63,194 bases of DNA, filler included, from Welwitschia mirabilis (GCA_051453625.1; 4 parts of one record of this genome joined end to end with filler, not necessarily neighbours in it); one strand, 5' to 3'; numbered from the whole stretch's first letter, positions 2,319 to 60,127 are shown. A program made the numbers and translations. Notes: generated from the letters alone by a model not told the origin.

Positions 2319-2418
2319 NNNNNNNNNNNNNNNNNNNNNNNNNNNNNNNNNNNNNNNNNNNNNNNNNNNNNNNNNNNNNNNNNNNNNNNNNNNNNNNNNN
2401 NNNNNNNNNNNNNNNNNN

Positions 2419-4300
2419 GTGAAATATGTGATGAAAATTATCACTCTACCAAGGAATGCCTAGCTTTACTAACTTATAAAAAGGCCATATTCAATGAAGC
2501 TTATGCATTCAATCAAAGGCCAAACAACTTTGAAGGCAATCAACAATATCTACCAAGAAATAATGAACCTTCAACATCTTTCCAACCTTCATTTGATAAC
2601 AATTACAGAAATCATAACTCTCTGCCTAATTTTTCCAACTACATTAAAAATGATCCTTATAGATAAATGATGGAGGAACTCAAAAAGACACAAGATACCA
2701 CCAATGATATTTTAGAAAAATTAGAATAAAAACTTAGAAAATTTGATTGGCCTCGTTTTTCAAAACATGTTAGAAAAACAAAGACCTCAAGGATCACTTG
2801 CCACTTAAACTATTCTAAATCCAAATGATGTAATGAAAGATTGGAAAGTAGTAACTAGAAGTGGACATAACACTACTTCTTGTGAGAAACCTTCAACTTC
2901 TGTCCATAAAGAAAAACCTCAAGAAGATCATATTAAAATTTTTGATCAACTAAACTTTTCTAAATCCAACAATAACATCCGACATCCTAAGGAGAAGACT
3001 ACCTCATGGCTGGAGAGATTACACAACAATCCAACTTATGATGAATATTTGAAAGTAATTATGAATGATGTTACTATCAACTTACCATTTTGGAAGGTCC
3101 TTTAAGACAACCCCAAGTACAACAAAATTTGTAAGGACATAGTAAAAATAAAATAAAAGAGAGTAATTCCAAGTAAAGTATTTATTGCTCAATCTCTTTC
3201 TAACTTAGTTTCTTAAAAATGTCTTAAGTTTAAAGATCCAGGGGTGGCCACTGTTGGTGTTATTTTAGAAGGAAATAAGAAAATCAAGAAATCTCTAATA
3301 TACATAAGAGCAACTGTCAATATTTTTTGCCTTTACACATTTGTAAAAAGCTTGGATTAGAAGGGAGAATTGAACCTACCAAAATAGTATTGGAATTGTC
3401 TGATCCATTAATTAGGAAACAAATAAGAATAATTAAAGACTTATTAATTCAAATTAAGGAAGCTTTTTACCCTATATATGTGGTTATCATAAAGGTTACA
3501 TAATGGTTGATACCCTCTACTTTTAGAAAGAGCCTTTTGTACAATAGCCCATTGTGTTATTGATACTTGCACAGGGATGATGGAATGTTATATAGGTAAT
3601 AAAAAGTTTAGTATCAGAGCATTAATGCTGCTAAAAAAGACATGGAAGACAAATTAGACATAGAAGACAAAGTTAGGTTATTCATGTTAGTTAACATCAT
3701 CCTTTTAAAGAAAGGCTCCTTTCTATACATAACTTTGCCTTATTTAAGGATGAGGAAGAATCTTCTATTAGTCTTAAATATTTAAAATCCTTTAATTCTT
3801 ACAACCTCAATCCAAATCTTTTAAACCACTCTTCCGATAATGATTTTCATAAGAACTTTAAACCCATACTTGAGCATGATATCCAACATGTAAGATCCAT
3901 TTAAAATCTTTTACATCAAGATGGTTGTTCAACAACTATGAAGGATGAAAATGATCACTAACTTAAATAATTACCTAATGGCTTGAAATACATGTTCATA
4001 AATAATACTCTTAATAAGTCATTGATTATGAGTTCTCAGCTTCACCCTTCCTAAGGAAAATCCTTACTTAATCATATCATTAAGCCAGTACTCAAGGACA
4101 AAATTGATAAACTTATAGACATAGGTCAATTTGGGCTTTTGCATAAAACTTAAGTACATCCTATGCATAACAAGCTGACCTCCAAATGGCTCAGTCCTTA
4201 TCATGTGAAAAGAATACATTCTAATGGCTCTATTAAGATCTCTAATTTTCAAACTCAAGAAATCAAAAGAGTAAATGGACAAAGGTTAAAACTTTATACA
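2419..4300 (+). pseudogene. Athila-like gag-C/protease pseudo-ORF, copy 2, joined directly to an integrase C-terminal remnant
   Basis: Diverged duplicate of ~790-2318, then the LPNGLKY pre-RT linker, then the KLTSKW..NGQRLK motif. No RT, RNaseH or integrase core motifs lie between. Confidence 0.8.
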
Positions 4301-16859: not shown

Positions 16860-19800
16860 TGCTGTTACAAGTACCTAACTACTGCAGCAATGCCATAAAA
16901 AGGGATGTAGCACCACCAGAAAGGGGGGATTGGCAGGAAAAGGACTTGCAAAACAACAAAGAAGAGGCGTATGAGTTAAGAAGGACGTTGAACCAACTGG
17001 TGCATCATGGAAAACAGAGGCCAACCTCTAATCCTTCCTATTAAATAGAGCTAATCGCTCTAACCGCGAGCAACACGAAGGAGAGGAGATTGTGAAAATG
17101 ATACATCTGAAGACCTATAAAGGCAAAGCCGGAACAAATGAAGAAGCTATATCCTGGATCCGGCAATTAAAGAACTACTTCGAGCTTCAAAATTTTCCTC
17201 CAGAAAGACAGTGCATATACGCTGTTGTCTTTCTTGTAAGAAATGCACAAGAATGGTGGTCTAGATGCCAATAAAAACATCCTCAAAAAATAGCATGGAA
17301 TACCTTCATAGAAGATTTCCAAAGGAAATTCATCCTGGAAGATTTCATTAAAGTTCAAATGGTGGAGTTCCAATGCCTCCGCTTGAGAAAGCGCCCACTG
17401 GATAAACATTGGTTTGAATTCCATTGCCTCATGCAGTACCAGAAGAACTTTACTAAGAAGTAGTTAATTAACAGTTTCATTGGGACCTTACTGCCCAAAC
17501 TTAGAAGCATCTTACACACCTTAGAGATCAAATACACTGAAGATGCTTACTGCAAGACAAGACATTATCTCCAACAATAAGAGAATTGATGGTCAAAGCA
17601 ACATTACCTTCAAGTGGACAAACAACCTACATTGCCATGAATGCCACCGACACGGAAGCCATACAGAACAAATCTTAGTTGCCATAAATGCTACAAGAAA
17701 GGCCACATTACCAGGAACTGCCCACCCAAAGCACGACCACCAAATCTTCCTCAGCAAAATCGGCCTCAAGATTTCAGAATCCACCTGTACAACGAAAAAG
17801 AGTATAAACTACCATTCAAACATGTGCGATTCACAATCAGTACTCCATCTTAAAATTATATGGTCATATTTCATCTTTTTCTGTGTTGTTCCTAGTTGAT
17901 AGCAGAATGACACACAATTTCATTTCACCCACATTATTTTACAAACTAATCACCCCATTCAAAGAACAAGAATCCATCATAGGAGTTGCAAGGGATAGTT
18001 TCTCACATAAGACGGGACTACTACGCTTATCAATTATAACATTCATGACTCACATTTTAAGGTTCCAACTTGGGGAGTATCATGCCATTCTAGGGATTCC
18101 CTTCTTAATCTCGGACCCTACCTGCCTAACTAGAGCGGGTAGCTTATGCATTCCACTTGTCGAATCAGGTCAGATATAATGTTCAAATCAATTTTCGCCA
18201 ATGAACCCTATTACTGTTAACTTCGTTTAGAGAGCGAATTTTTAAAGGGGAGAGGAGGAGTAAGAAGATATCCTTGATCTCATCCAAATAGATCTCAAGA
18301 GCTATCAAAAGGAAACAAGTCTTCATTGCCCTAGTGCAGGCAGAAAACCATAAAGAAAACCCCACTATACTAGAAGAACTGTAGGAATTCTCTGATATGT
18401 TTGAAGACTCAAAAGTACTCCCACCCAAGAGGAAAGTACAACACACAATCGACTTAATTCCTGGAGCATAGCCAATATCACAAACACCTTATCTTTTCTC
18501 AGTAGTAGAATCAAGAGAACTGAAGCTACAAATTGAGCACCTATTGTTAGAAGGGAAAATTTGCCCTAGTGTGTTACTATGGGAAGCACCAGTACTCTTC
18601 GTTAAGAAAAAAAATAGTACCTTACAACTTTGCATTGATTATAAGTAGCTAAACAAGGTAACCATTAAGAATAGGTACCCGTTACCAAGAATCAACGATT
18701 TATTGGATCAACTTCAAGGAGCTAAATTTTTCTCAAAGATCAACTTAAATTTTGGATACCATCAAATCCGCCTCAAGGACAAAGACATCTGCAAGACTGT
18801 ATTTAGAACAAGATACGAACATTACAAGTTTGTAATAATGCCTTTCGGTTTAACAAATGCTCCAACTACTTTTATAGTTTAATGAATGATATTTTTCGAT
18901 CATATTTGAATAAATTCGCAGTTGTATTTTTAGATGATATTCTAACATATTCTAGAAATCAAGATGACCATATTACACACTTGAAAAAAGTTTTATAGNN
19001 NNNNNNNNNNNNNNNNNNNNNNNNNNNNNNNNNNNNNNNNNNNNNNNNNNNNNNNNNNNNNNNNNNNNNNNNNNNNNNNNNNNNNNNNNNNNNNNNNNAT
19101 GACCATATTACACACTTAAAGAAGGTTCTACAAGTTCTGTCCAAGCATAATTTCGAAGCCAAATTAAGCAAGTGTGAGTTCTTTTAGATAGAAATTAGCT
19201 ATCTAGGCCATGTCATCTCTAGTAAAGGAATCACAAGTTCGACGTTTCTTAGGGTTGCCCAACTTTTATCGAAAATTTGTTCTAGGATTCTCTCAACTTG
19301 TAACACCATTGACAGATCTAACCAAGTCAACAGTCATATTCAACTTTAATGACAAATGCATAGAAGCATTTCTCAGATTGAAGCTGCTACTTACAACAAC
19401 ACCTATTCTCAAAGTCGCAAACATAAATAAACCCTTTATAGTCACCACGGATGATTTTACTCAAGGAATAGGAGCCGTTCTCAACCAGGATGATTAGGTG
19501 ATCACTTATGAATTATGGAAGTTGAACCAACATGAGAAGAACTATCTCGTTCATGATTTCGAATTACTAGCCATAGTACATGCCTTGAAAGTTTGGAGAT
19601 ATTATCTTGTGGAAAGCGAATTCCTTCTCAAAACAGATCATAAAAGCTTGGAATATTTTCAGGAATAACCCCTTTTGAATATGTAACATACTCTCATAGA
19701 ATGGATACCTCCTGAAAGGACGACGCCTGTGGATTCCACAAGTCCCATAGAGAAGGAAGCTGATGTCCGAACTACACGAAGTTCCATATGTAGGACACCC

Positions 19801-21578
19801 CGGATTCGTTAGGAATTACCACCAATTGCGAAAACACTACTTTTAGCCCAGAATGAAAGTAGACTAAGGAATACATCTGCAATTACTCCATATGCCAACT
19901 ATGAAGATTGATCAGGGAAGATCTACCGGTCTCCTTCAATCTCTGGGAGTACCACAGTGGAAATGGGAAGAAATCTCCATGGAATTCATCACTGGACTAC
20001 CCCTCACTAATAGATAGCATGATGCAATTTTCGTTTATGTAGATAAGTTTACCAAGATGGCTCATTTCATTGCAGTTCGAAGCTCTAATACAACCAAAAA
20101 ATTAGCCCTCAAGTTCATACAGAAAGTTTTCAAATTACATGGTGCACCACAAGTCATAGTATTCGACTGAGATCCGAAGTTCTTATCTGAGTTCTGACAA
20201 AGTTTCTTCCATCACTTATGCACTAAACTCAGCTTCAGCACTGCATACCACTCAGAAATAGATGGCCAAACCAAAAGAGTGAATCGTATACTGGAAGATA
20301 CTCTAAGGTGTTATGTGGCAGGAAAGCCCAAACAATGGGAAAACTATCTACATTTGACAGAGTTTGCTTATAATTAGACATTTCAAACTTCCATTCAATG
20401 TTCATCATTCGAAGCAATGTATGGCAGAAACGGTTCCACCCTTATTACATGGTTAGATACTTCACAGAGATTGGAAAAGACGACACCCTCAGAATTCAAG
20501 TTGATGGAAGATATAATCAATAAAATAAAAAGACAGCTACAAGCGACACAAGATCGATACAAGAAGTATTATGATCAGAAACATCAGACCTGCGCATTCT
20601 TAGTCGGCGAATAGGTATTGCTAAGAATCAAGCCAGAAAGGAACTTCTTGAAAATGGTTAACATCATGGTTCGATGGTCCATTCAAGATCATTGAAAGAA
20701 TAGGGGATCTAGCATATAAACTAAAACTCCTTCCACAGATGTCTCAAATACATCCAGTTTTTCATGTAAGCACAATGAAACCATACCACAAAGATAGAAA
20801 CTAGGACTACACCTAGAACTGAGAACATATTATACTCAAACCCAACCTGACTTTTGCTAACCAACCAAAAAAGTCCTAAACACCAAAACTAAGCAATTAA
20901 AGAATAAAGCTATAAATGAAGTACTTATCCAATGGACCCACTATAACCAACAAACATGGAAAAATAGGAAGTACATGCCAGAGACTTTAAATAAAGCCTG
21001 ATATATCAGTTTGTTTTACATTATCGATGTATCTGTTAATAAATGATATCTCCCCTTCCAATATGTTTTGTAGATCATACAGAAAATAATCCGAAAGAGC
21101 ATAGCTTTAGAAACAATGCAAAAAGATGAGAGACCATACTCGAGGACGAACACGATTCCTAAGGGGAAGGGAATGTAATGTTCTCAATTAACTATTTGAG
21201 TAATAAGTGTGTTAAATGCTAAATGAATGTAATTAACAGAGATATGAATGGATGCAACCTAAGTATGAAAAGATGTATCCCATCATTATGCTATATAAGC
21301 CTATGGCGTTAGGTTGAGGTTGATAGACTGGGTGGATGTAATCGACGATAACCTTGGCTGATCCCCAAGAGTTCTAGGAGGGGGACTCAGGTCGTAGTCC
21401 ACGTCTTTATTTTTGACCACTAGTCAAAGGCTGTTGGCTAATGATGAGGAATGTAAGCCATTGTTTCTAATAATAAAGTTTACATTATTTCTAAATTATT
21501 CCTATTGATCCTGGCATGTTATTTTATATGTTCCTTTTCATACGAAGTAATCCACAATTAGTAAAATGAGACGTTACA
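16860..21578 (+). mobile_element. Chromovirus Ty3/gypsy (Tekay/Reina-like), decayed; 5' LTR not found
   Basis: gag with zinc knuckle CHKCYKKGHITRNC (~17680-17721), PR LVDSRMTHNFI, RT ([41 protein letters not shown]), RNaseH (FIVTTD..GIGAVLNQ), integrase ([28 protein letters not shown]), chromodomain-like EVLIQW, PPT AAGGGGAAGGGAA. Confidence 0.92.
21174..21578 (+). repeat. 3' LTR of the chromovirus (405 bp)
   Basis: TGTAATGTTCTCA...TGAGACGTTACA inverted termini directly after the PPT; TATATAAG near 21292; AATAAA near 21472. Confidence 0.88.
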
Positions 21579-21599
21579 CTCCCAGTTGCTTCCTCAACA

Positions 21600-22325
21600 C
21601 TTGTTACTTATATCATGTTATTCAAGTAATGAAAAGACTCCCTTTGACAAAGACAAGATCCTTACTTAAATAGATTTGCAAATTAAGTTCGAAGGTTAAG
21701 CAGGTTGGTTATGAAACTACTACTATCACTACCTATGTGATTGGGTGATTGCAAGTAGGCACACTTTCATAGAAACTAGAAGAAGACATCATTTACACAT
21801 TGATAGACAATGCTAGATAGATAGTGTTTCATAAACATAAAACAAGGCATTACTAGGAACTATTGCTAGGCAATTCTATGTAGTAATGAATTAAGTAGAA
21901 ATGTAGTCTCACTAGATTATCGTTGAATGATGATTTATGGTGACGCTTTCAAAAGAAGATGTCGTTTGATGTTATTACTAGGCATTGATCTTGCATGTGA
22001 GATTGTTGTTGGATTAATCAGTTGGAAATAATTCTACATGCAACTTTGATCATGTCTAATCCTTTCATACAGATCCTAAGAAATCATGTAACCTTATTCA
22101 CAGTTAATTTTCCATTTTTAGTACCCTTCATAGGTCTCATTTTGAGTGTTTATTTGTTACGCAGGGAATTGCATAATTTAAGTATTCCAACTTAACAATG
22201 TATCCATCCACAAGTATGATATTGAAAATCCTAATAACTATTTTGATAAAAATGTGGTGATAAAAGTTGTAAAAATAATCAAGGAATGTGAAAATTATCT
22301 ATGATTAGATTAAGTGGGAGAAGTA
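21600..22325 (+). mobile_element. Very decayed copia RT/RNaseH remnant with possible PPT
   Basis: Weak remnants (DDL; GIDLAC..VVGLIS, resembling RPDIAYAVGLISRF) and AAGTGGGAGAA at ~22312. Confidence 0.35.
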
Positions 22326-22769
22326 AAGCATGAAAAACCTAAAAAGGTGAGTAACAGATGTGATCCATCCAATGTACAATAATATGTGAATGGACAAGGG
22401 AAATAATCAAGTTGCACTATCATGCCAATAATGTGGACAACATAAGATGATATTGTTAGGAAACAAGAATGCCAAAAAATGGAAAGGCATAAGATTTCCA
22501 AATCAAAATTTTATTTCTCCTCTCTTTTTATTTGACACAAAGCTTACTTAAATAGCTAAGCCAACCACTAGGCTTTTCACGTATCCCTAGACATAGGACC
22601 ACAGTGTATACTCGTCTTAGCAATTCCCCCCTTAACATAGGAATATGCCCTCTTCCAAGGGAAAACCAAAGTGCCTAGGGAAAAACCTTGGGAATGCGGC
22701 CTACAACAAAACCTTTAGAAAGAAGTTGCTATGTCAGGAAACAACTTCGTAAAAGAAGCAATCAATTTA

Positions 22770-22897
22770 CTACGACACATCCCGTAGTAGATAGGCTTAT
22801 TCATATGCATTACACATCCCATAATGCTAGGCCAAGATGTGTACTACACAACCCGTAATACAAGGTCATATTTGCACTACACATCCCGTAGTACTAA
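22770..22897. repeat. Four imperfect ~34-37-bp tandem units with core ACTACACATCCCGTAGTA
   Basis: Read directly; probably part of a TE-derived LTR or UTR (22560-22990). Confidence 0.8.
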
Positions 22898-24191
22898 GAT
22901 TAAATGTGATTTCAATTAAAGATCCAAAAGGTCAAATAAAGCCCACGATGTATAAAGCAAAATAAGTATAACAAAAAAAAAAAAAAGGAATATCATGTTT
23001 TATACTATCAATAGCAAATTTAAAATACTTATAACTCAAGCTTTTCACATTTGTATTAGGTTGATTCCATTTTATGCTTAGAAACAATAACAATTTCATG
23101 TATTTAAAATGTTAACATAGAATATCTATTTTTGATTATAGATTTTTTCTGAAAGGAAGTTTAAGCTAATAAAACATATTTCCGAAAAGCTTATTATTTA
23201 CTAATTAAATAAAATTTTCATAGAATCAAATTGTCAAGAAGTATGTCTGCTAGATTATCAAAATTTGATATCTCACATGATATAATAGTATTTTCAAATT
23301 CCTATCTTGTAGATTACATCTAATTAGGCATAATAGAGTTTAAGAATTTTCTGCTTGGTAAAGTCTGAACTATGAACACCAAAACATTTTTCTCTCGAAA
23401 TCATCAATAGCATCTTTTGCAAATGACTTAAAAGTATCAAAACAATTTCCTACTGCCATAGCACGAGCAATCTTTCGATGTAAAATCAAAGTAAGAATAA
23501 AAGTCCATAATGCACACAAGTAACAAGAAAGCATTAAGAGCTTATCATCTCAAACGCTCTTCCCATAATTTTGCTTAGGTCTTTTTATTTATATGCTGTT
23601 GTTAACTTATGTAATCACCCAATGCTATATTACAAGTAATTTTATGTATGACATGTTAAGCATGATAGACTAAAATATTTCCACTTATCAATTCTTCTAC
23701 AAAACTACTAGTGAGGCTAAATGTTTTCTTAGAAAAAAAGTCATTTGTGATGTAAAAATCTTCAAGTAAATCATAAATGCTTAGGATTTAAGTGTAAGAA
23801 TAGTAACAAGAGGGGTTCTTGCATTCCATACCATCTCTTATAAGAGCTAATACTTTGCTTATTAGCAAGTTCACTATCCACCTATTGAGTTGAGTATATT
23901 AGCTTTTGTCAAATGAAAATCAAACTATAGAGTATTTGCAACTTAGTAGAAAATTTATGGAAGCAAAAATGAGATCGAAAAATGGTTATGCAAATTTTTC
24001 TAGTTTGCAATTCATTTTGCCCAATCATATCATGCTCTCAACATAATGTCATATATGACAATTGGAAAAATTTCATTAGCATGTTAATGCAAATATGTTT
24101 TACTTTATTAATTTTTATCCTTGGTAGAATTATCATTTTACTTATCTCATTTATATATAATGAAAAAATTTATATTATAACTCATTTTTAT

Positions 24192-24292
24192 TCAAACAAC
24201 ATAATTAACTAATTCGCCTATTCCTTCAATGTACATCTGAATAGTATCTCCTGGTAGTAGATGTTTCGGTGGATTGAAGCCTGAACCAACAC
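24192..24292 (-). CDS. Terminal coding exon of a fumarylacetoacetate (FAA) hydrolase family protein, FAHD2/YisK-like C-terminus
   Basis: T-rich intron end ...TTTGTATTGTAAATAG| (AG at 24294-24293), phase 1. Translates without interruption as (G)VGSGFNPPKHLLPGDTIQMYIEGIGELVNYVV*, with TGA at 24194-24192. Fits the family C-terminal pattern [TGTPx]GVGxxxxPPxxLxPGDxxxxxIEGIGxLxNxV. Confidence 0.85.
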
Positions 24293-25767
24293 CTATTTAC
24301 AATACAAATGAAAAAAATGTATGTTAGGATCTTGAAACAATTAACAAGTGCAAATTATTGAAAACATTGAGTCAAATTCTTGTGTTTTGTGGAAAGAACT
24401 TTTAAGTTCATGTATTTAAGTATGTAAGTTCAACAAAGAAATGCATTGATCATATTCTTGTATCCTAAGAAGGATTTTAAAAATGGAGATCATAGTTCAA
24501 GATACTTTTCAAATGAAAACTTAAAATGTGTCATTAACCTACCAACAAATATTAACATATGTAAGTGTAAAACTATTTATACTAAACATTCACAAGGATT
24601 GTATCATACATATGATGTGTGTTAGGTAGACTTACAAATATGTAAAACATATGTTAGTGACTTAATCACTTATTAGAAGTGCACATGTTTATTAACTTAT
24701 TTCAAAGAGCTAAAAATTAGATTCTTAGCATGATATTGGTAGAAGTGAAGTGAAAGGGGATAGGACACTTGGTAACATGCAACATGATTGAGTATTGACT
24801 ACAAAATGCCAAGATAACATTAACCAAAGCTTTATGTTAAGACTCATTTGTGATATTATCATACAAATTTTCTATAGAAGTTAATGTTTGGGAATTGTCT
24901 TAATACCTTAATGAATCATATCATTATAAAAATAAGTATGGAAATTGCATATAGAAAGAATGTCATTCACATGAGATAGGAATTATATCAAATTCATAGA
25001 TCAACATTGAGGTTGATCATGAACTTTAATTACTATATAGCATCCAAATGTAATTTTCATATAGGAACTATTCTTTAGTTTGGTATTATTTTTACATGGT
25101 TACTCATGGCTCACATCATTTAAAGTAAGGAAGGACTTCATAACGTAATTACCAAATTCAATAAGTATAAATTCCATAATAACTTCTAATCAATATGTGT
25201 TACTAGGTTTATGAATTCTTCAAAGGAAAATATCTCTAAAAGATAAAATAGTACTTATCATAGTAACAATTAAGTTATTGTTGTTATATAAATTAAGTTC
25301 AAATCGCAAAATCATTAATATTAAATGATAATAAAATATAGTTATATGATAAATAACAAAAAGGATCATATTTGTGATATAAATAGTTGTATCATTTTCA
25401 TAAACAATATAAATAAAATTAAGAAAATGTATAAAATGGTATGAGAATGAATTGTGTGTCTCACGATTGTAGGAAATCTACTATTTAATTTAAAAAAGGT
25501 TTATGGCATGGATATAATTCATGAAACAAGTCTCATAACAAATTCTCTCATCATTTTCCCTTTATTTTGAAAGAAAAGTGGGTTGAAAATTATATTACTT
25601 CAACAAAATTAAGTTGTAAAAGGTGTTGGGGGAGGAACTCCATCGAGCTATCAACATAATAAATTTTCCTTTTCAAGACAACCACATCGAAAGAAAATAA
25701 CATTGAATATAAGATTAAAAACAAAGTTTCTAATTTTTGCTCCAAAATTCATTGTCCAAAACTGCCC

Positions 25768-26815
25768 TCAAGGTAGGATTGGTAAGGATTCATTACCATT
25801 CCTAACTTCCTTCATTTGCTCTAGTGTGTACGTTTCATTACCGGGGTTCTTGTCCAGATGTCGTTTCAATACCACTTTCTTATAAGTGCTTTTTATTTCA
25901 GACTTGGTAGCAATGGGAGTGATTCCTAATATTGCATACCAGTCTTTGTTTTCATTAACTAACATCTTGCTTCAAAAGCTACGTTCCTCTCACTTTTCCT
26001 CATTCTACTCATTGTGTTGTTGATACTGTTGTCGCTAAGGCTTCTAATATCGGTATTGCTACTGCTACTGTTGCTGATTAGGATGTTGATGATGGTGTTG
26101 GTTCTAGTGTCAACATCGATGCTAAGGCCTTACGTATTGCCCTCCTCCCTCATGTTGTTGTTACTGCTCCTTGTGTCTACTTGCCTTCTTTGTCTCTCCT
26201 AGCTTTTCTATTTTTCATTTTTTGTTTGATTTTTCCTCGGACTTCCCCATTCTCATCTAGTACTCTCCTTTTCACTTAGAGCTATCCTCTGCATGGTCTG
26301 AACCTCCCCTTCGGATATTTACTTATAGAGCCACATCACTACTAGAAGACATGTTGACAAAAGAACGGATTTGAATTAGGTTCAAAGGAGGTGAAGTAAA
26401 ATTGGAAATGACCTTGGTGATTTCCTCCTTATATTGTTGCTGCTTTTCACGGTAGACTCCCTCTTAGGCCTCCTCAGACTATGGACTTCTAAAGCGAATT
26501 TTTGTTTCATCATTTATTCTGACTTTCCTTGTTTTGATAGGTCCTCGTCCTTCTTTTCAATGCTTTTGCACTCCATCAAAATTGTTACTAGGCCCCTTCA
26601 ACTCTCTCTTCCCCTCTTCTTGCTGCTATTGCTGTGCTTGTTTCTCTAGCTCTTCTTTTGCTTGGTCTTCTTCCTAGGCCTGTAGAGTCCTAGCTCCTCC
26701 TTCAGAGGGTGCCTCCTATTAGTGGAATAGTCCCTCCACTTCTTAGGCTACTTCCCCTAAGTTCTTGCTACATACAAAATTGTCTAAATGCAGGATGAGG
26801 CTAGAGTGCCTATCT
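25768..26815 (-). pseudogene. Decayed ORF ending in a DnaJ J-domain (J-domain ~25780-25945)
   Basis: DWYAILGITPIATKSEIKSTYKKVVLKRHLDKNPGN (HPD changed to HLD); upstream E/K/Q-rich and N/S-rich coding-like sequence with many stops. Confidence 0.7.
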
Positions 26816-26834
26816 GCCTATTTCAATTTGAGTT

Positions 26835-26839
<5 letters not shown>

Positions 26840-26880
<41 letters not shown>
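26840..26880. repeat. (GA)~20 microsatellite at the LINE 3' boundary
   Basis: Read directly from the sequence. Confidence 0.95.
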
Positions 26881-26883
<3 letters not shown>

Positions 26884-29800
26884 TAGGGATGTTAATATGC
26901 CTCCCCTCCCTCAAAGCTACTAGGAAACTAAAATATAATCCACTTGAGTTTGGAATCGTTCCAATCTTGCATAAGAAACCTATACACAAACCCAATGGTT
27001 AGTTGTGAAATGTTCATCTAATTCTATCTTTCGAATGTGTCTTTTCAAGGCACAAGGGGCTTTCCTCCCAAAAGGCATTTGCATTATTGTATCCAATAAA
27101 AGAATATAGAATGATACTTTTGTCTGCCTTGATATTTAGGGATTGAGCTATTAATTCTACCATTACCCTTTAGCTTGATGAGTCTGTCTTAGTCAATGGC
27201 ACATATTCATCCCCATAGGTTTTCATTCCTTTTAAATTTACCTATGTTGCCAGTTTTATGCCTTAGATGGGATCCCATTGCTATCAAAGCAAGTTTAGGT
27301 TTCCATGTGATGGCCGTTACAAGTTCCTTTATGCGGGTGGTGTTAAAAACTTTTTTGTTCCTTGCTATCATGATGCGCCAAAGCACAATGCTAATTTCTC
27401 TACCTGACATCAATTTCATGTCCTCTCAGGAATCTTGTTCATGTAGCAACTCCCCCCTCACATTTGCTACAAAGTGGCATGAGTGAAAGAGATGTTAAAT
27501 TGTTTCATCCTCACCACTACATGTGGAATCTAATGTGCTGACATGTATTCCCCTTTTCTATAGTTGTAGTCTTGTTAGGGTCTTGTTATTGTTAATCAAA
27601 TACCTTAAAGTGACATGCTTTCCCATGATGATACTTCTCCAAATCTTCTACCTCTTCACATTCATACCACATTTTTTTAATCAATAATTTTTTAGCTATA
27701 CTTTCCCTCCATCCACCCATAGTATATTTAGAACATCTTCTTAATTAAAATGTGCCTCTTCTATTAGCCTCTCTGACTCATTTATGGTTTTGTCAATCTC
27801 GATCTCCTTGCTTTGTATCAATCAGTTTTGAAAATAAATTCATCCTATCTTCATAATGATGCAAAAGCCATCCCCTCACTTCATTAAGCATGTTAAGCAT
27901 TTTGGGAGTGATTTCCCCTAGGCATTTTGAACACCAAAAGGAGATTTCCCCATGGCTTCTGAGCCTATCAGTTCTTCTGGTTCTTCTCTTGCCTTATATA
28001 TTTCTTTCCAAAAAGGAGGATCCCCTCTTTTAGAGTCTCATCCATACACTATCTTTTGACTAGACCAACTGGAGGTAGCTTTTTGTCTTGCTCTAGCTTG
28101 GTTAAAAGCTTGGTCTAAGTAGCTAGGATAGTGTCTTTTATCTTATAGATCCCCCAACCACTACATTCTACAGGTTTGGCATTACTACTTCAATTTTCTG
28201 CATGAATGTGGTTACCCCTTCCCCCCCAACTAAATGAAATTTCTAGTTACCTGATTTCATTCATCTTTGACTTTTTCTAGAAGAAGCCCCATTGAAGCAC
28301 TATATCTAACAATAAAGCTAATGCAAGAGTTAGATACAATAATTTTAGCTTTGCTTGAAAGGAAGGTTATTCCCTAGCTATCACATTTGTTATTAATTTT
28401 TTGAATTAAATTCCCCCACGTATTTACTCTTTGCTAGTTGAAAAGAATGTCTAGATACAAGTCTCTACTATCTCCTTTCATTATATGTAGGGTTCTTAGC
28501 ATAACATTCAAAATAAGCAAATAAATCCTTTAACTTGCCTTAGGACATTTCTAGTCTTGTATCTTTAGAAAATTATTTAAGACCTTTTTTTAACTACCAC
28601 AACATCTCTTATGTATGACTTGATGCAAATGATACTGTGATTGCATAAAACTCTTTCCCCATGAACTTAAATTCTGTTTACTCATTTCATATAATCTTGC
28701 ATACAATGAAGAAGAATGATAAAAAAGTAGGATGATAATGGATCCCCTTGCCTAAGTCGTCTTGTAGCTCCATAATAGTTATGTTGTTCTCCATTTTGTT
28801 TCAATTTGAAGCAACAAGATTCTTGCATATCCATTATAACATTTTCAAATTTCTTATCAAACCCTTTATGCAATAAAGTTTCCCTTAGACTTTTCTAGGC
28901 TACTAAATCATAAGCTTTTGAAATGTCTAACTTTAGAAAAAGGGCAACCTTTTTAAAATTTTCTCTGCGAGTGCAAGGATTCATGGATCAAAATCACCTA
29001 GTCTTGAATGCTTCGAGACGGTAAGAAGCCAACTTCATTCAAAGAAACTACAGAAGGAAGAAAAGGCCATAACCTAGAGACTAAAACCTTTAAAAATAAT
29101 GTGTAAATGACATTACAAGCTTCTATGGATTTAAGGTTTGTCACTTCTAGGGCATCCGTCTTTTTGGGGGATCATGACTATGTTTGTTTTGTTCCATTTC
29201 CTGGGAATCCTCCCTTGTTTTAAGGACCCATCAAAGGCCTCCTCAATAAAGAGGCCAACCCTAGCCCAATATTCTTTGAAAAACTCAACTGTCCACTCTT
29301 CACATCTTGGATGATTGTTGGTTTTCATGTTGTTTAACACTTGCTTTGTTGGGCCCATTACCCTCACACCAAAAGCCATGACTTAGATGGAAATTGGAAC
29401 CCTTCATATTTACCCACTTGTCGGGCCAGACATGGGGAGCGCAGACCTAACATGCTTCACTTGCCTTGCTTATAGAGTACTCATAAGATTCTGTCCCTTC
29501 CATGAATTGGTAAGAGTATATCTACTGCTTGCGTTTTGCCTTTCTTCCCAAAAATTCTTTAACATGGTATTAAAATGCTTTAGGAATCTCTTTTACTTCA
29601 TCACTAATCCCCCTGCCTACATTGTTGTTATAGTATTCTCTATTTATCTTTGATTTGCTATTCTATTTAAAAAAAAAAAAAAGGAAAAAGAAAAAAGAAA
29701 AAGGCTATATTTTTTATCACCTTCCTTAGGCCAAGTTCACCTGGATCCCTGTATCTAGTAGGTTTCCTTTTAGATTTTAGCTTAATGCAATCCAAATAAC

Positions 29801-31544
29801 TTTTGAAATTTCTCTTATCAAATTTCTCCCTATTCTTGCCTAAGTCATACCCGTCTAATTTCCTCTTTGAGGTCTTCTATTTCTCTGATTTGTGCCTTTT
29901 GGCCCATTTTTTCAATTTGATTTTTGTACTTGTTAATCTTTCTTCTAGAATAATTAACGGCTTTCCTTCCCCCTGGTGCCATATTTCTCCAATTGTATTT
30001 TCTCGGGTTGTTTCTAGAAGTCAGCCATTCTCAAAGGAGCATTAAGACCTTTTGCCTTTAATCACCCCCTTTCTTAATATTATGGGCCTGTGATCTGAGC
30101 ACCATCTTCCCTCTGCTTCTAAAGTCCAAAACTTATCTAGCCGCCACCCCAACATGAGGGCTTCATTTATCCTTGACATGATTCTATTATGTGCAGCTCT
30201 CTTATTAGACCATGTGCCTTTTGCTTTACAGAGCTCCATGTCAATCAAATTCACCTTTTCTATAGATTTTTCATAGTAATTTGCCTCCACTAGGTTCTAG
30301 GACCTCCTCCTTTCTTTCTTGGGGAAATCTGGTTTGGTCAAAGTTTCTAACGACAATGCAAATCTTCCTTGAGATTTTCTTCTCAATTTCCTCTCAAAAA
30401 TGATGTTTGAGAGGCACTTGTTGTGGCCTATACAAATTAATTAGAAGAGCCTTCTTCGACTCCAAAAACTCTGATACCATCTATCACTACAAAATTTAGG
30501 TGACCACCTACTGTCCCTACACTACTATTGAGCACTATGTTCCACTTATTAGAAAAACTCTAAAAGATAAACTCTCTTTCACTTTCTTTTCCTATTAAAA
30601 AATGATTCATACTTTGTAATCATTTCCTTTAGAGAAGTAATTGTAGGGCCAATTCTCATCCCCCTTATGTTCCAACTGAGTACTAGCAATTTTTAAGTTT
30701 CTTTGACCTTTCGCCTTTGCCTGTGAATGTGTCCAGAGTTTTCTGGAATCCATTTGCTATAATTTCCTTTTGCTTCTCTTTGGGCCTTTAATCCTTCAGG
30801 AAGACGTCTGCCACTCTGACTAGGGATTTTGCTTGCTAATGTATCATTCTATTCACTCTATTCAATCAGTCTGTTCTCTTCCTCCTGCTCTCCCACTTTG
30901 TCTATAAAACCTTCATTTCTACCTAGCCCCTTCTCTAGTTCCTCCCACTCATCACTGTCAACTTTATTCTGCTTTGTTTATGTCTTCACTTGCTTTGGCT
31001 TAACTATAGTATTCATTTTCCTCCTCCCCTGCTAGAATCCATGTTTTTTTTTTTTTTGAATCTACAATTACCTATACAGTGTCCAAACTGGCCACAAACT
31101 ACCCAAGTTTCAACTCTGCATGATTCCTTCGAATGCCCTTTCCTCCCGCATTTTTCACTGACATGCTCCTTGAGCTTAGGGAAAAAGCACATGGAATGCC
31201 CAAGTCCATTTCAACCTTCACATGGAACATAAATGTTCACATATTCTGCTTCTACCTTATTAATATTGTATAGGTAAATTATTTCAAAATTCTTGACTTT
31301 CTTTGAGAGGTATAAATCCGTGAATGCATAGAATCTGATCAACACCATCCTTGCTCCACCGATAGTTATTAAATCAAGCTTAATTAGCTTCCTAAATTGT
31401 CCTGCTAGATGTTCTATAAATTCCTAGTTCTATAGGGTCAGACCTACCCTCTGTGGTCTTATTTCGATAAGGAGCTTTCTAAATATTTTATCAAAATCCT
31501 CTCCTGAGATCCATCTAGCCAAGGCCAAACCCCTCGCCCCAAAT
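26881..31544 (-). mobile_element. L1-type LINE (partial ORF1 plus ORF2 EN-RT-zf), decayed, interrupted on its 5' side by a SIRE LTR
   Basis: ORF1 knuckle VCGQFGHCIGNC (~31065-31100); endonuclease LLVLSWNIRG (~30690), GTWSN..RI, CSDHRPI; RT TVEFFKEYW, NKTNIVMIP, KLDISKAYD, RLRQGDPLS; zf-RVT-like CSGEDETIxHLFHSC (~27500). Confidence 0.9.
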
Positions 31545-32581
31545 TGTTAGGATCGACATATGCTCTAGAGGGGGAGGGTGAATAGAGTATTTAAAAATTA
31601 ATTGCAAATAGCCTTATGATCACAAATGTATACCAAACAAAAATTTAGAAAAAGGAAATGCTGAAAACAAAGAAGGCACCAGATTTTTATAGTAGTTCAA
31701 CAATCAACCTAATCCACTCTCAGGGGGTAGCAACTGCTATCAGCCTTCTGGTTTTATTAGCTATAAATCTTACACAATCACCTCCTTTTTTCTCCTCCAC
31801 GACCAGAGAAATGCAAGATAACACAACAAAGCTCAACCCAGTGAGCAATCAGATTCGAAGTGTCTGAGAGAGAGAGGATCTGATAGAGAGGTGCCTTGAT
31901 AATGCACAGTAAATCAACAATGTGGAATATACATGAACATGATAGCTAATTTTGCTCAAAGTAGTTCTCTTTGAATACAAGATGATACAATGTAAGTACA
32001 GTTAAACAAGATCTGATCAAGTGCATTCTATTTAAACTGTTTCGAAAAAATAGCTGTTGTAGTCTGCCTTGAAAGAAGTGCTGCATTGGAAAACACATTG
32101 CAGACTAATAGTAACCCATTTTTTGTATTGGAAGAACGCTTTGGGCAGCCAAACAGATCTGAAGTTCCGCTATAACATTCTTCTAGTCGGATGTCCCATA
32201 TTAAGTTGGATGTCCCACATTTTTAACCTAGGAACTACTCAAATGTCCCAAGCTGAAGGTCGGACGTCCCAATATTTTGACATGACAATCACTTAGACGT
32301 CCCATATTAAAACCCGGGCGTCCCACTTTGGATTCAACAAAAAGGTATTAAGTTTCTTAACCGGACGTCCCATACTCATCTGTCGGACGTTCCACTTTGA
32401 AAGTTCTTCTGTTTTATATCCATAGATAGTACCGGACGTCACAGTGGGAATGATCGGATGTCCCAACATGTATTGGTTCTTGAACTTGGCGATTTTTGTG
32501 CTCATTATATTATTTCGTCCAATTCTAGTGCTTTATGGTGTTCATCATTGAAACTCCTTAATTTTTGATATCTTCGTAACA
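31545..32581 (-). repeat. 3' LTR of SIRE element 1 (~1037 bp)
   Basis: TGTT...AACA termini; U5 signature ATTCACCCTCCCCCTCTAG on minus strand; GGACGTCC repeats in U3; PPT at 32582-32594. Confidence 0.9.
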
Positions 32582-33042
32582 ATCTCCCCCTTTTCAATGA
32601 TAACAACACATTTGATTTATGTGAAAGAAAGATTTCAAACAGGAGTTTGATAGCAATTTTGCTGTGCTCCCCCTGAATTTTATGCCTGTTTAAATAACTG
32701 CCAAGTTCAAAGACCTATAAGCATCTAAGTCAGCCTGAAGCACAAATTTATCTGCACTTGACATTATTAGTTCACGGGTGGATAATATATTAAAAAAACT
32801 TGATGAAAATCATTTTCAAATAGACATTTAGTTATATAAAAAATGTTGCCACAATTTAGAATAGGAATTTGCTTTCTATTAGAATGATAATTCAGTACAA
32901 CAAAAGTTGAGGGAGAATAAAACAAAAACGTACAAGTATATAGCTTGAGAACTTCTGCCCCTTTGTCATCATTAAGAAGAAATAGGAGTAGGAGCAGGAG
33001 AGCACAAAAAGATTCAAAAAGATATAGGAAGAGAGTAGGCAA

Positions 33043-34877
33043 TTAGTCCGATGATTCTACATAAGAGGGACCCTCTACTGGTGCTGGAGGAGCCTGCTCT
33101 TCCTCTTCATCAAATCCAAGAGGGATATCAAAACTGTAAGCTGATAATCGGACGTCCCATACTCATCTGTCGGATGTTCCACTTTGAAAGTTCTTCTGTT
33201 TTATATCCATAGATAGTACCGGACGCCACAGTGGGAATGATCGGATGTCCCAACATGTATTGGTTCTTGAACTTGGCGATTTTTGTGCTCATTATATTAT
33301 ATCGTCCAATTCTTGTGCTTTATGGTGTTCATCATTGAAACTCCTTAATTTTTGATATCTTCGTAACAATCTCCCCCTTTTCAATGATAACNNNNNNNNN
33401 NNNNNNNNNNNNNNNNNNNNNNNNNNNNNNNNNNNNNNNNNNNNNNNNNNNNNNNNNNNNNNNNNNNNNNNNNNNNNNNNNNNNNNNNNNNNNNNNNNNN
33501 NNNNNNNNNNNNNNNNNNNNNNNNNNNNNNNNNNNNNNNNNNNNNNNNNNNNNNNNNNNNNNNNNNNNNNNNNNNNNNNNNNNNNNNNNNNNNNNNNNNN
33601 NNNNNNNNNNNNNNNNNNNNNNNNNNNNNNNNNNNNNNNNNNNNNNNNNNNNNNNNNNNNNNNNNNNNNNNNNNNNNNNNNNNNNNNNNNNNNNNNNNNN
33701 NNNNNNNNNNNNNNNNNNNNNNNNNNNNNNNNNNNNNNNNNNNNNNNNNNNNNNNNNNNNNNNNNNNNNNNNNNNNNNNNNNNNNNNNNNNNNNNNNNNN
33801 NNNNNNNNNNNNNNNNNNNNNNNNNNNNNNNNNNNNNNNNNNNNNNNNNNNNNNNNNNNNNNNNNNNNNNNNNNNNNNNNNNNNNNNNNNNNNNNNNNNN
33901 NNNNNNNNNNNNNNNNNNNNNNNNNNNNNNNNNNNNNNNNNNNNNNNNNNNNNNNNNNNNNNNNNNNNNNNNNNNNNNNNNNNNNNNNNNNNNNNNNNNN
34001 NNNNNNNNNNNNNNNNNNNNNNNNNNNNNNNNNNNNNNNNNNNNNNNNNNNNNNNNNNNNNNNNNNNNNNNNNNNNNNNNNNNNNNNNNNNNNNNNNNNN
34101 NNNNNNNNNNNNNNNNNNNNNNNNNNNNNNNNNNNNNNNNNNNNNNNNNNNNNNNNNNNNNNNNNNNNNNNNNNNNNNNNNNNNNNNNNNNNNNNNNNNN
34201 NNNNNNNNNNNNNNNNNNNNNNNNNNNNNNNNNNNNNNNNNNNNNNNNNNNNNNNNNNNNNNNNNNNNNNNNNNNNNNNNNNNNNNNNNNNNNNNNNNNN
34301 NNNNNNNNNNNNNNNNNATCTTTGCGTCCTAGCTTCGGAACTATATTATGTGTGCAAATCTAAAAAATTACTTGATAAGACAGCTTGAGCTGATTAGTAG
34401 GAATATTGATTTTCCATTCCATGTGTTTTCCACATAATTCATGAGTCAGGTCATCTTTGGGAATGGCTTCTTCTAGAAATTCGACTGAGGTTATATTATG
34501 AAAACTACAAGAATTTGGAAAACCAGTAACCTTAGAAATCATATGTAGAGTTATTTCTATATTTTTACCATATACTCTAGATGTGATCTTATCACTGTAC
34601 TTGTCAAAGTGACTATTGCAATAGAAAAGTCGGACCATTTTGACTAAAGCTATAGTATCAGGGTCAAAGGCATATTGCCACTGGAGAGCCTCGAATCTGG
34701 GAAGATTTGGACCTCATGCCTGAAAGATTCAAAGTCAGTTCTCCTTTTAGGAGTAAGAGGCCTCTTGGAGAAGCATGTTAGCCAAAACTTCTTGTGCTCC
34801 TCACTTGGGAACGAGTTTTCTGAAGAGAAGCCTGCTGGTTCTTTTCCTTTCCTCTGAGCCAGCTTGGTCCTTCCCAT
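33043..34877 (-). pseudogene. SIRE env-like/extra ORF (N-terminus 34319-34877; probable C-terminus 33043-33148)
   Basis: MGRTKLAQRKGKE..DFESFRHEV..MVRLFYCN..ITSRVYGKNI; homologous to 50067-50349; lies between pol and the PPT. Confidence 0.7.
33149..33391 (-). repeat. Near-identical duplicate of the LTR start and PPT (copy of 32362-32604)
   Basis: About 4 mismatches over ~240 bp; abuts an N gap. Confidence 0.85.
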
Positions 34878-35449: not shown

Positions 35450-37480
35450 TGAGGATTTACCCCAATGCCCAAATTTTGTCTTAGATCCTTGAATCGTTGC
35501 TCATCTAGGGCCTTTATTATGATATTTGCAATCTGATTGTTAGTGGATATATAGTCAAGAGTAACAATATTACTTTGAACTTGATCTCATATGAAGTGAT
35601 GTCTTATATCTATCTATTTGGTACGAGAGTGTTGAACTGGATTTTTCGTTATGCTAATAGCACTTGTGTTGTCACAAAACATTCTCATAGTTTCACATTT
35701 TACTCCAAAGTCTGTTAACATTTGTTTCATCCAAAGTAATTGTGCACAACATACACCTGCTGCAATATACTCTGCTTCAACAGTTGATAGGGATGTTGTA
35801 TTTTGCTTCTTACTTAACCAAGACACTAAGCAATTCCCTAAAACAAGCTCCACTGGTGCTTTTTTTGTCATATAAACACCCAACCTAGTCTACATCACAA
35901 TACCCAACTAAATCAAGAGAGGTACCATAGGTGTAAAATAATCCATGATTCTGTGTGTATTTGATATAACGAAAAATTCTCTTAACACACATCAAATGGG
36001 ATTCTTTTGGGTCTGATTGATATTCTACATAGATTCCTACACTATGAGCTATATTAGGCTTGCTTGCTGTTATGTGCAATAGACTTCCAATCATTCCTAT
36101 ATACAGTTTTTGGTCCACTCTTTTTCCTCCTTCATCTTTTGATCTTTTCAGGTTTGTGGAAGAAGGAGTTTTAATGTCTTTTAAATCTTTCATACCATAT
36201 TTCTTTAACATGTCTCTAGCATATTTGGACTGACTCATAAATATTCTAGTTTTGGTTGGTTTGATTTGGAAACCCAAAAAGAAGTTTAGTTCTCCTACTA
36301 GACTCATTTTGAATTCTTGTTGCATTGTTTCAGAGAATTTTTCAGCTAGAATAGGTTTTGTTGCACTGAAGACAATATCATCCACATAGATTTGTACTAT
36401 TAAAATATCCTTCTTGTTTCGTTTAATAAAAAGAGTTGGAACTGCATTTCCTTTAGAAAATCCTTATGACATAAGGAATGGGTTTACTCTGTCAAACCAT
36501 GCTCTTGGGGCTTGTTTGAGCCCATAGAGAGCCTTGTTAAGTTTGTATACATGGTTTGGAAATTTTGGATCTAAAAATCTAGGTGGTTGAGCAACAAATA
36601 CTTCTTCATTAATACATCCATTTAAGAAGGCACTCTTCACATCCATTTGATGTAACTTAATCTTATGAAAATAGGCAAAGTCTAGTAATAATTGAATTGC
36701 TTCAATTCTTGCAACAGGAGCAAGTGTTCCACCATAGTCAATTCCTTCTTGTTGGCAACATCCTTGAACTACTAATCTAGCTTTGTTTTGTACTATTTGG
36801 TGCTGTTCATTTCTTTTGTTCGTAAAAACCCACTTGGTTGCAATAATATTTTTGTTTAATGGGGTTGGGACTAGGTCCCAAACTTTATTCTTTTCAAATT
36901 GATTTAATTTCTTTTACATGGCCATCATCCAGGCCTTATCATGTTCTGCTTCTTGAAACGTCTTGGGTTCTAACTCAGAAATGAAACATGAAAAACTATG
37001 ACTGATGTGCTTTTCACTTCTTGTGNNNNTACCTTGGATTGGATTACTGACAACATTAGTTTCTGGATGACCTCTTTCTGTTCTAAGAGGGAGAGAAGAA
37101 CATATATTTGAAGATTTCTTTTCACTGTTGGAAGACGATCGCTGGTCATCTGATGTACCTTCTTCTTCAGAGGTTTTTATGATGACTGCTTTTTCATCAT
37201 CTCTTTTATGTTGTGTGGAAGTGCCTTGAGTAATCTCTTCTACTCTAACATGGACTGAGTCTTCTACTCTGTTAAAGGCTTTGTTAAACACACTGTATGC
37301 TTTACTAGTTGAAGGGTATTCAAGAAAAATTCCTTCATCTGTCTTAGACTCAAAGTTACCTACAGTATCTTTAAGAATAAAACATCTACTTCCAAACACT
37401 TTAAAGTAATTCACTATAGGTTTCTTGTTTTTCCAAAGCTCATAAGCGGATCTCTTAGTACTAGGTCTAGGAAATATTCT
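35450..37480 (-). pseudogene. Copia pol fragment (integrase C-term, RT, RNaseH), frameshifted
   Basis: ORF track 35614-35883, 35885-36385, 36464-36646, 36914-37570. Confidence 0.92.
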
Positions 37481-37500
37481 GTTTTTCCAAAGCTCATAAG

Positions 37501-39038
37501 ATTTGATCCTTAAGGTGATCCTTGAAGATTGGCTGGCCATCTTGAAAGCACATGCACAAAGTTCACACAAACTTACACAGAATTGATTGTTGGTAGATGC
37601 AAAATGAGGTGTTGAGCCCCCTTTTTATAAAGAAAAACTAGGGTTTGCATGAAAACGAGGATTCTTCCCTAAGAAGGTGTGTTGTGGGCCCCCAACTTTT
37701 GTACCTTACACAGGGCACATCAAAAGATAAGGTTGGAATTACCATAGTTTTAACATAAAACAACCTTCGTTACAGTATTAAACTTAACCTTTTAACCTCT
37801 CTCATCCCTCTCCTCTCCTCTTATGCAGATGCTTGGTGGTGGGCAACTATTGGATACCAACCTGACCCCCAAAGGCTAGAGGACCCATTTCTCAATTTTG
37901 CCCAACCTCCTCCACCCAACTCTCTCTCCTATTTCATCTCCTCTTTCTCCTCATCCTTCTTTTCCTTCCCTCTCTCCCCTTTCGCTTTCTTTCTTTTTTC
38001 TTTCCTTTCCTCTCCCTTTTCTAACTACCTTCTCAGCCCTCAGTTTATTTCTCAAATTCCATGCCCTTGGCATGGAATCCTATTCCACACCCCACCTAAT
38101 TCCACGCCCAGGGTGTGGAATTCAATGTAGCCTCTCAGCCCTCGTCCCTCATTTGACACCAATCTCTAGCTTAGCTCTAGGAATCAAACTCAGAATTTAG
38201 TCTCATGTTCTTCAACTTAAAGCTTTTCTTTTAGTCTGGGTTTTCGGCCTTCTTATTTGACAAGAAGACATCCTATAATCGTCTCCCCTCGCTAGGATCG
38301 CTTCTCAACTCTTTTGCCTTCCCCATCATTTTTTCTCCTTTATCCTTCCCTTTTACCCTCTTGTTCCATCCACCTCCCTTCCTTACTTTCTCTTGACCTC
38401 TCAATACTATACCTTAGGCATGGAGTCCCTACTCTAGGTCTTCTCCCTCAAGTCCAACCACATAGCTTCCAGTCGTAACTAGCTTAAAGAGAAGAAGAAT
38501 CGGATGATGAATTTAGATGGCCTGAGCTTTCAGCAGTGGATCTCTAAAACAGATGCCAACTTGGTTCGGAACCCCAAAACCACCCAGCCTCCTCATCCCA
38601 CCTCTTTCCCTCTTCTTCTATTCCCCTTTCCCTCCTTTCCTTTTCCTTTTCCTTTTCCTCTTCTCCTCCTCTTTCTCTCCCTCTCCCTTTCCCCTCCATC
38701 AGATTCCATGCCCAATACGTGGAATCTGGGTCAATTCCATACACAAGGCGTGAGATTCCCCAAACCTTCCTCCACTTTCTCGTCTCTCATCTCGATTCCC
38801 CATAGAATCCAAATTTTCAATTTCCTCTTCTAGCATTTCTTAGTCACTATTCCTTTCAGGCTCTTTCATCATCTAGAGGCATAGTCCTTCAAGGAAGAGT
38901 ATCATTCCTCAGCTCTTTGCCCAAATTTCTCCACTAAGGATGTCACTATTCAGTTCGCAATCAAGTCTAAAAGAGTCCTACGGTTGCATCGAATCCATAG
39001 GGTATGCCAGAATCAAGCGAGCCTACCCATGAAATTAC
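37501..39038 (-). repeat. Unclassified repeat, probably an LTR-element internal region; relative of 47026-49088
   Basis: Shared motifs: CCCC(C/T)CTTTTATAAAG, GTGGGCAA..TTGG..CCAA..CCCC..GCTAG.GGACCC, CCACGCCCAGGGTGTGGAA, and long pyrimidine tracts. Confidence 0.55.
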
Positions 39039-59987: not shown

Positions 59988-60127
59988 TAACAAAGATTAT
60001 GCCTCCACCTATGAGAGATTTTTCGTTACTTTACATTCAAACCCCATAGATGCTTTTTAACAAAGATTATGCCTCCACCTATGAGAGATTTTTCGTTACT
60101 TTACATTCAAACCCCATAGATGCTTTT
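59988..60127 (+). repeat. Perfect 70-bp tandem duplication inside gag
   Basis: CAAAGATTATGCCTCC... starts at 59991 and again at 60061. Confidence 0.95.

Follow-up and report, generated by a model that had tools for sequence, protein, structure and literature searches.

The closest described relatives of the gene considered here are FAHD proteins, a family recently tied to the repair of enol-oxaloacetate, a succinate dehydrogenase inhibitor (PMC10825186). Oxaloacetate tautomerase activity, combined with only weak decarboxylase activity, is reported there for FAHD2A/B of cattle and humans, human FAHD1, YisK, YcgM, FMP41, an archaeal FAHD and the two Arabidopsis short forms; the activity of FAHD2A/B on enol-oxaloacetate is thus one shared within the family (PMC10825186). 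FAHD2A and FAHD2B (OAT1) are long forms, with an N-terminal extension of about 90 amino acids relative to FAHD1, as is also the case for YisK (PMC10825186). YisK of Bacillus subtilis, represented by the structures 8SKY, 8SUT and 8SUU, is described in a bioRxiv paper as an oxaloacetate decarboxylase. According to PMC8001395, the superfamily has three members in Arabidopsis, namely FAH and two genes of the FAHD1 type whose N-terminus differs from that of FAHD2. Here we describe a 63,194-nucleotide stretch of the Welwitschia mirabilis genome (GCA_051453625.1; four parts of one record joined end to end with filler), called the window below and counted from its first letter, which carries on its minus strand a short coding exon at 24192-24292. 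With a probability of roughly 85%, we read this exon as the last one of an expressed nuclear gene for a long-form, YisK-like FAHD protein, an orthologue of uncharacterised proteins predicted for green plants from a prasinophyte alga to conifers.

The exon and the signals around it are as follows.

24192..24292, minus strand: terminal coding exon of 101 nt (sequence, open reading frame, homology, RNA-seq, conserved columns)
24294-24293, minus strand: AG splice acceptor of a phase-1 intron (sequence and loose ends of RNA reads at 24294)
24295..24330, minus strand: 3' end of the last intron, with a T-rich tract and a CTAAC motif (direct sequence reading)
24032..24191, minus strand: approximate 3' untranslated region (UTR), from RNA depth, the transcript ending somewhere within this span

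The minus-strand open reading frame (ORF) running from stop to stop over 24192..24296 translates as IGVGSGFNPPKHLLPGDTIQMYIEGIGELVNYVV and is followed by TGA at 24194-24192. Across the acceptor the minus strand reads ...TTGTAAATAG up to the junction and GTGTTGGTTCAGGC from it onwards, and the exon itself opens with 2 nt that complete a Gly codon divided by the intron, continues for 32 codons (VGSGFNPPKHLLPGDTIQMYIEGIGELVNYVV) and closes with TGA. The T-rich tract and the CTAAC (24327-24323) precede the AG by about 30 nt; we take the latter to be branch-point-like from the general plant branch-point consensus. At the other end, an AATAAA (24192-24187) overlaps the stop codon. The original prediction had proposed a clean 101-nt terminal exon with an AG acceptor, which sequence, ORF and spliced reads bear out: its span of 24192-24294 is the exon plus the AG, the strand is minus, and the peptide it quoted matches the translation exactly.

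We then evaluated the transcription of the locus using raw RNA reads from the same species, comprising four runs from two studies (X16 and X17; X19 and X20), over 23000-33300. Reads were accepted from 95% likeness and about a quarter of each run was used. The bin containing the exon (24032-24375) has a depth of 3.6, 2.5, 3.8 and 1.95 in the four runs, with mate directions summed, and the flanking bins reach at most 0.04; the 3' UTR span is based on the step from 1.95-3.8 in this bin to 0.04 or less in bin 23688-24031. No variant letters occur in the exon bin in any of the four RNA runs. At 24294, reads end in unaligned sequence in all of them (9, 10, 11 and 7 reads of X16, X17, X19 and X20; 37 in total, agreement 1). 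The 30-letter consensus of these loose ends, reverse-complemented by hand, encodes ..GDIIATGTPS in frame with GVGSG.., and this motif precedes the exon segment in every homologue and is identical in conifer sequences. That the loose ends begin at 24294 rather than 24292 is explained by the upstream exon ending in AG, as does the intron. The exon is therefore spliced at this acceptor to a conserved penultimate exon ending ..GDIIATGTPS and is part of a spliced mRNA, and the 37 spliced reads show that the gene is active, as had been predicted.

The exon peptide was assigned by profile, protein and structure searches. It matches the Pfam profile PF01557 (FAA_hydrolase) at positions 184-214 of 214 (E=0.0011, 19.2 bits). 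A phmmer search of 1.84 billion proteins with the 34-aa peptide returned 44 matches at E<=1e-3, of which the best two, both 75% identical, were P0001 (a 46-aa fragment; E=1.7e-7) and P0002 (460 aa; E=1.1e-6); in the reverse direction, tblastn of full-length P0002 on the window gave E=1.45e-10 at 24198-24293. Nine chains of the Protein Data Bank (PDB) matched the peptide at E<=10, the best being 6v77 (HpcE-like), 6iym and 8sky, with alignments to 8sky 272-302 (E=4.5e-4), 6iym 244-275 and 6v77 244-272. Chains of FAHD1, YcgM and FMP41 were absent from these nine matches.

The FAHD1-type proteins (human FAHD1, 6FOG; E. coli YcgM, 1NR9; Arabidopsis AtFAHD1a and AtFAHD1b) share the superfamily and the catalytic core with the plant long form, here represented by P0059 ('uncharacterized protein LOC131068486 [Cryptomeria japonica]'), but the FAHD1-type chains checked, which include 6fog, 1saw and 1nr9, align to P0059 over residues of about 160-347 (E 1e-27 to 1e-34) and end at ..GVGS. 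Since their alignment ends at residue 347, the exon-encoded segment distinguishes the long YisK/HpcE tail from FAHD1. The exon carries the segment GVGxGFxPPxxLxxGD...IxGIGxLxN of the long YisK-like and FAHD2-type proteins, and YisK, 6iym and HpaG align to the end, so the GFNPP...GIGxLxN tail put forward in the original prediction as a mark against FAHD1 holds, as does the FAA_hydrolase match that it anticipated from family-profile and protein searches. HpaG/HpcE and 2,4-didehydro-3-deoxy-L-rhamnonate hydrolase likewise align to the C-terminus including the exon region (1gtt, 6iym, 6v77). By its sequence, the exon belongs to the FAA_hydrolase superfamily (PF01557) and is of the long YisK/HpcE type, not of the FAHD1 type. 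In the protein, the C-terminal strands after the conserved TGTPxGVG loop would come from this exon, and the metal-binding motifs DYExE and NDxTARD would sit in upstream exons outside the window.

Full-length searches with P0002 and P0059, evaluated over the best 120 matches of each, gave the same protein set. In the P0059 search, 35 proteins stand above the first bacterium-like match, 16 of them unnamed transcriptome or metagenome proteins and 19 with organism names: Cryptomeria (two) and Taxus; Physcomitrium, Ceratodon and Sphagnum; and Calypogeia, Riccia, Diphasiastrum, Selaginella, Ceratopteris, Adiantum, Closterium (five), Mesen1 and Pyramimonas. There are no angiosperms among these 19. 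Orthologues of 57-70% identity thus cover Pyramimonas, the streptophyte algae, bryophytes, lycophytes, ferns and conifers, and bacteria (Azospirillum and many others) come next at 48-64%. No animal or fungal (opisthokont) protein is among the best 120 of either search. Given that bacteria directly follow the green lineage within the best 120, 'FAHD2-like' is a description of architecture and not of demonstrated ancestry.

Over the exon itself, the closest database protein is about 75-76% identical, the species' own protein being absent from the collections searched. Between the window and complete orthologue C-termini, 18-25 of 33 residues are identical; for the truncated Taxus model the figure is 17. 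None of the 12 columns invariant across 32 green-lineage C-termini is altered in the window peptide, nor is any of the nine near-invariant ones (one residue in at least 27 of the 32). The peptide differs from the majority residue at 10 positions, all of them in columns whose most frequent residue is found in 22 of the 32 or fewer. Met at exon position 20 is common to all conifer-type sequences and one alga, while Q19, Y21 and Y31 occur in none of the 32 and set the Welwitschia peptide apart from its orthologues in non-flowering green plants, a comparison made over the last exon alone. The Cryptomeria (P0059), Taxus, Physcomitrium, Selaginella, Ceratopteris and Closterium proteins have the same exon content, the invariant columns and the intron position before VGSG. 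The faulty models P0078 (Adiantum), P0077, P0068 (Closterium) and the fragment P0001 break off or read through between ..GTPx(G) and VGSG, which is the intron position of the window, shared with the Adiantum, Mesotaenium and Closterium models. Two further gene models end differently: the second Cryptomeria model, P0072, diverges from P0059 past ..KIEG, and the Taxus model P0065, which is partial, stops at ..RMRIE, both points lying inside a single exon of the window; an alternative donor or a mis-prediction may account for them.

A quick maximum-likelihood tree was built from 32 green-lineage proteins, 32 hand-picked bacterial proteins and the exon, leaving out P0048, P0056, P0057, P0068, P0072 and P0114 as redundant or aberrant; the phylogeny suggested by the original prediction was thus carried out with green-lineage and bacterial proteins only. 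One branch, with an SH-aLRT support of 100, sets the green lineage apart, and the inner order of this lineage runs from Pyramimonas and Klebsormidium through Zygnematophyceae, liverworts, mosses and lycophytes to ferns beside the conifer set. The exon, on 33 columns, is placed in the Cryptomeria/Taxus/conifer-like set (99*). It thus falls inside the green clade and has the phase-1 intron before VGSG, the two features of the green-lineage orthologue group. Together these data support vertical inheritance from an early green-lineage ancestor, in which case the gene would represent an old, retained lineage.

The likely architecture of the complete protein can be read from these orthologues. Residues 80-375 of P0059 and residues 1-293 of an Azospirillum protein of 295 aa can be aligned over their full extent with 50% identity, indicating that the plant protein is probably a complete long form of the bacterial type preceded by an N-terminal extension of about 79 amino acids. 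In the orthologues, these extensions are rich in Ser and Arg, like organelle presequences, and suggest targeting by a segment of about 80 aa; the Welwitschia protein would accordingly combine a targeting presequence of about 80 aa with a complete bacterial-type enzyme. DYExE and NDxTARD are present in all 34 green-lineage and bacterial relatives inspected, and among solved structures 8sky is the best match to P0059 (E=2.9e-80, residues 145-375 against 80-303). YisK and the plant orthologues share these two motifs and the GVGxGFxPPxxLxxGD...GxLxN tail. They differ in that YisK is a cytoplasmic bacterial protein with Mbl-dependent localisation, whereas the plant proteins have the presequence-like extension of about 80 aa and are encoded by intron-bearing nuclear genes.

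By analogy with these relatives, the enzyme would be organellar and take oxaloacetate as its substrate, working as an enol-keto tautomerase and, weakly, as a decarboxylase. We give about even odds to its being an organellar enol-oxaloacetate tautomerase/decarboxylase. Three orthologues (P0059, P0051 and P0002) were scored against NCBIfam models and reached 33.8-36.2 bits for TIGR01266 (fumarylacetoacetase; cut-off 375.3), 161-193 bits for TIGR02303 (HpaG/HpcE; cut-off 276.4) and 167-188 bits for NF053535 (DhyDRhmHlse; cut-off 500). The likeness to HpaG/HpcE and to the rhamnonate hydrolase at the C-terminus is therefore accompanied by scores far below the respective cut-offs (193 against 276 bits for TIGR02303; 186 against 500 for NF053535). 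As every equivalog model stays under its cut-off, sequence does not determine the substrate, and other 2-oxo-acid substrates are possible. One position of the active-site lid varies among the orthologues: His104 of YisK, which contacts bound oxalate according to a figure legend of the bioRxiv paper, corresponds to His in most orthologues, to Asn in Selaginella, to Thr in Klebsormidium and to Tyr in Cryptomeria, conifer-like transcripts, Riccia, Pyramimonas and one fern-clade protein (eukprot61).

The upstream exons were sought throughout the window. tblastn with the long (at least 150 aa) phmmer matches and the 35 green-lineage proteins found nothing in the window outside 24150-24300, the best match other than the exon having E=0.37. 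TGTP, GD[IVL][IVL]xTG and ELRQ were all absent from a six-frame motif search of the window, and hand-picked FAH motifs gave only chance matches in its six frames, such as 'DYEETF' in a copia element. Within 23000-33300, the four RNA runs contain no splice joint to 24294. The last intron can therefore be given a minimum extent.

24295..33300, minus strand: last intron, minimum extent (gap-free, with no upstream exon and no joint)

The exon sits in a gap-free block (19099-33391), and because no other exon is found in this gap-free stretch, the last intron must be more than 9 kb long. With a correct scaffold order across the 15 runs of N, it would exceed about 38.9 kb and continue past 63194, through remnants of copia and gypsy elements. 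On this basis, a phase-1 intron filled with retrotransposons would separate the terminal exon from a penultimate exon outside the window, and the exon looks isolated because its last intron is filled with retrotransposon debris. The great length and transposon content of this intron, like the placement in the tree, would suit a seed plant without flowers.

Several points weigh against reading the exon as part of an expressed long-form FAHD gene with the proposed function. Only one exon of the gene is visible in the window, which is a draft scaffold with uncertain distances across gaps: it contains 15 N runs totalling 1804 bases, so that the intron length of about 39 kb depends on the scaffolding, and the largest run (926 at 33392-34317) could hide an exon, although not the whole gene. 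The Pfam score of the exon alone is below the gathering cut-off of 23.9 bits, because the matching piece is so short (31 residues). Its placement among seed plants rests on 33 columns and its end branch is long (0.58). RNA depth is low, at 2-4x, and the reads could stem from a second, identical copy at another place in the genome. Three reads, in X16 only, join the exon at 24293 to another sequence that encodes ..INNELRQ.. out of frame; this resembles the conserved VNDELRQ of an exon farther upstream, and the junction is a minor, non-productive product of exon skipping. With regard to function, the NCBIfam equivalog models for HpaG, DhyDRhmHlse and fumarylacetoacetase all remain below their cut-offs, and the proposed activity is carried over by analogy from bacterial relatives of about 55% identity and from more distant animal ones.

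Three other explanations were weighed. The one that survives best, although we consider it improbable, is that the exon is the surviving piece of a decaying or chimeric gene whose spliced mRNA no longer encodes a working enzyme. The absence of any other exon in 63 kb, the transposable element (TE) debris around it, the low expression, the out-of-frame skipping product (three reads in one of four runs), the three residues seen in none of the 32 orthologues and the long end branch would all fit such a history. Against this, the upstream exon in the 37 reads is in frame and ends in the conserved GDIIATGTPS, all 21 invariant or near-invariant columns are intact, the unusual residues lie in freely varying columns, and the acceptor, stop and poly(A) signal are in place.

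Somewhat less probable still is that the RNA reads derive from an identical or near-identical paralogue, the copy in the window being an untranscribed duplicated fragment, carried for instance by a transposon. An exon standing alone among transposons and a read acceptance from 95% likeness leave room for this; however, no variant letters occur across the exon or the 3' UTR bin, the depth reaches into the unique 3' UTR of the locus, and the intron side keeps a well-formed acceptor with its T-tract and CTAAC. No TE termini were noticed flanking the exon, although no formal test for them was made.

Finally, a recent horizontal acquisition from bacteria with introns gained later, for which one could cite the bacterial nature of the nearest non-green relatives (Azospirillum and others, 48-64%), the lack of animal or fungal FAHD2 in the best 120 of either full-length search and bacterial YisK as the best solved relative, is very improbable, given orthologues of 57-70% identity from Pyramimonas to conifers, a single clade (SH-aLRT 100) that branches as plant phylogeny does, an intron position shared with the Adiantum, Mesotaenium and Closterium models, a plant-type targeting extension, and introns and chromosome-scale contigs in named plant records that speak against bacterial contamination. 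With orthologues across the green lineage, any transfer would predate that lineage's diversification. Of the two origins that the original prediction had offered, a patchily retained lineage is thus favoured, and horizontal transfer is contradicted by orthologues from algae to conifers in one clade with a shared intron. Its claim of novelty is mostly removed, as the best matches are broadly conserved plant orthologues that had already been predicted, though they are uncharacterised.

The window as a whole has a G+C content of only 28-42% in 3-kb bins, and the remainder of it contains decayed retrotransposons, identified from ORFs and Pfam matches.

35885-37624, minus strand: copia pol (RVT_2), three abutting ORFs in the same frame with in-frame stops
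41066-41434, plus strand: integrase core
51101-53486, minus strand: copia remnant
about 19868-20900, plus strand: remnant of a long terminal repeat (LTR) retrotransposon

A gypsy-like integrase tail is also among the decayed LTR-retrotransposon remnants, and an element at 59259-62284 (plus strand) has a related copy at 2023-2666 (plus strand), as judged by eye. The coding remnants around the exon had been described as decayed, and they are, as illustrated by the in-frame stops of the copia pol at 35885-37624 on the minus strand. On the same strand as the exon, 1.5 kb upstream of it and inside the intron, a DnaJ J-domain ORF (25768-25971, minus strand; Pfam PF00226, E=2.7e-10) has HLD in place of the HPD motif and no RNA depth in the four runs; it is probably a dead gene fragment. 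A segment of about 80 nt (about 29345-29422) is covered by RNA reads in all four runs, with many differing loose ends on both sides, several variant letters and joints of the 'opposite strands' kind, and resembles a short repeat or a transposon fragment that occurs within many different transcripts. A (GA)n-type microsatellite at 26829-26890, which translates as RERERE/SLSLSL, was flagged as a repeat and skipped in read mapping. An Rfam search of the whole window found no family. For a transposon ORF of the window, the matches were just two Tanacetum proteins, at 28-31% identity.

As a gene family, the plant long form is not new, its orthologues being predicted 'uncharacterized' proteins in public records, and the finding overturns nothing known: this is an ordinary inherited gene. 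In the literature searched, from which supplements were left aside, we found no paper on the plant long form outside flowering plants or on its absence from angiosperms. For annotation, the lesson is that a last exon stranded tens of kilobases away does not show in ORF-based tracks and can easily drop out of gene models; among the orthologues, several database models end at exactly this intron. For the family, non-angiosperm plants possess, and express, a bacterial-type FAHD in addition to FAHD1. These data allow us to propose, tentatively and at slightly less than even odds, that the green lineage inherited the long-form YisK-like FAHD as an ancestral, organelle-targeted enzyme, that flowering plants as a whole lost it and kept only the short FAHD1 type, and that this seed plant still expresses it from a gene whose final intron spans about 39 kb or more. 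The gene count in Arabidopsis, with FAH and a pair of FAHD1-type genes, is consistent with the absence of angiosperm matches. Given the tie of the family to enol-oxaloacetate repair, the lineage is a reasonable target for an enzyme assay and a localisation test. If the proposal is true, the pattern of presence and absence would point to a changed handling of enol-oxaloacetate, or of a related 2-oxo acid, in one organelle at the origin of the angiosperms.

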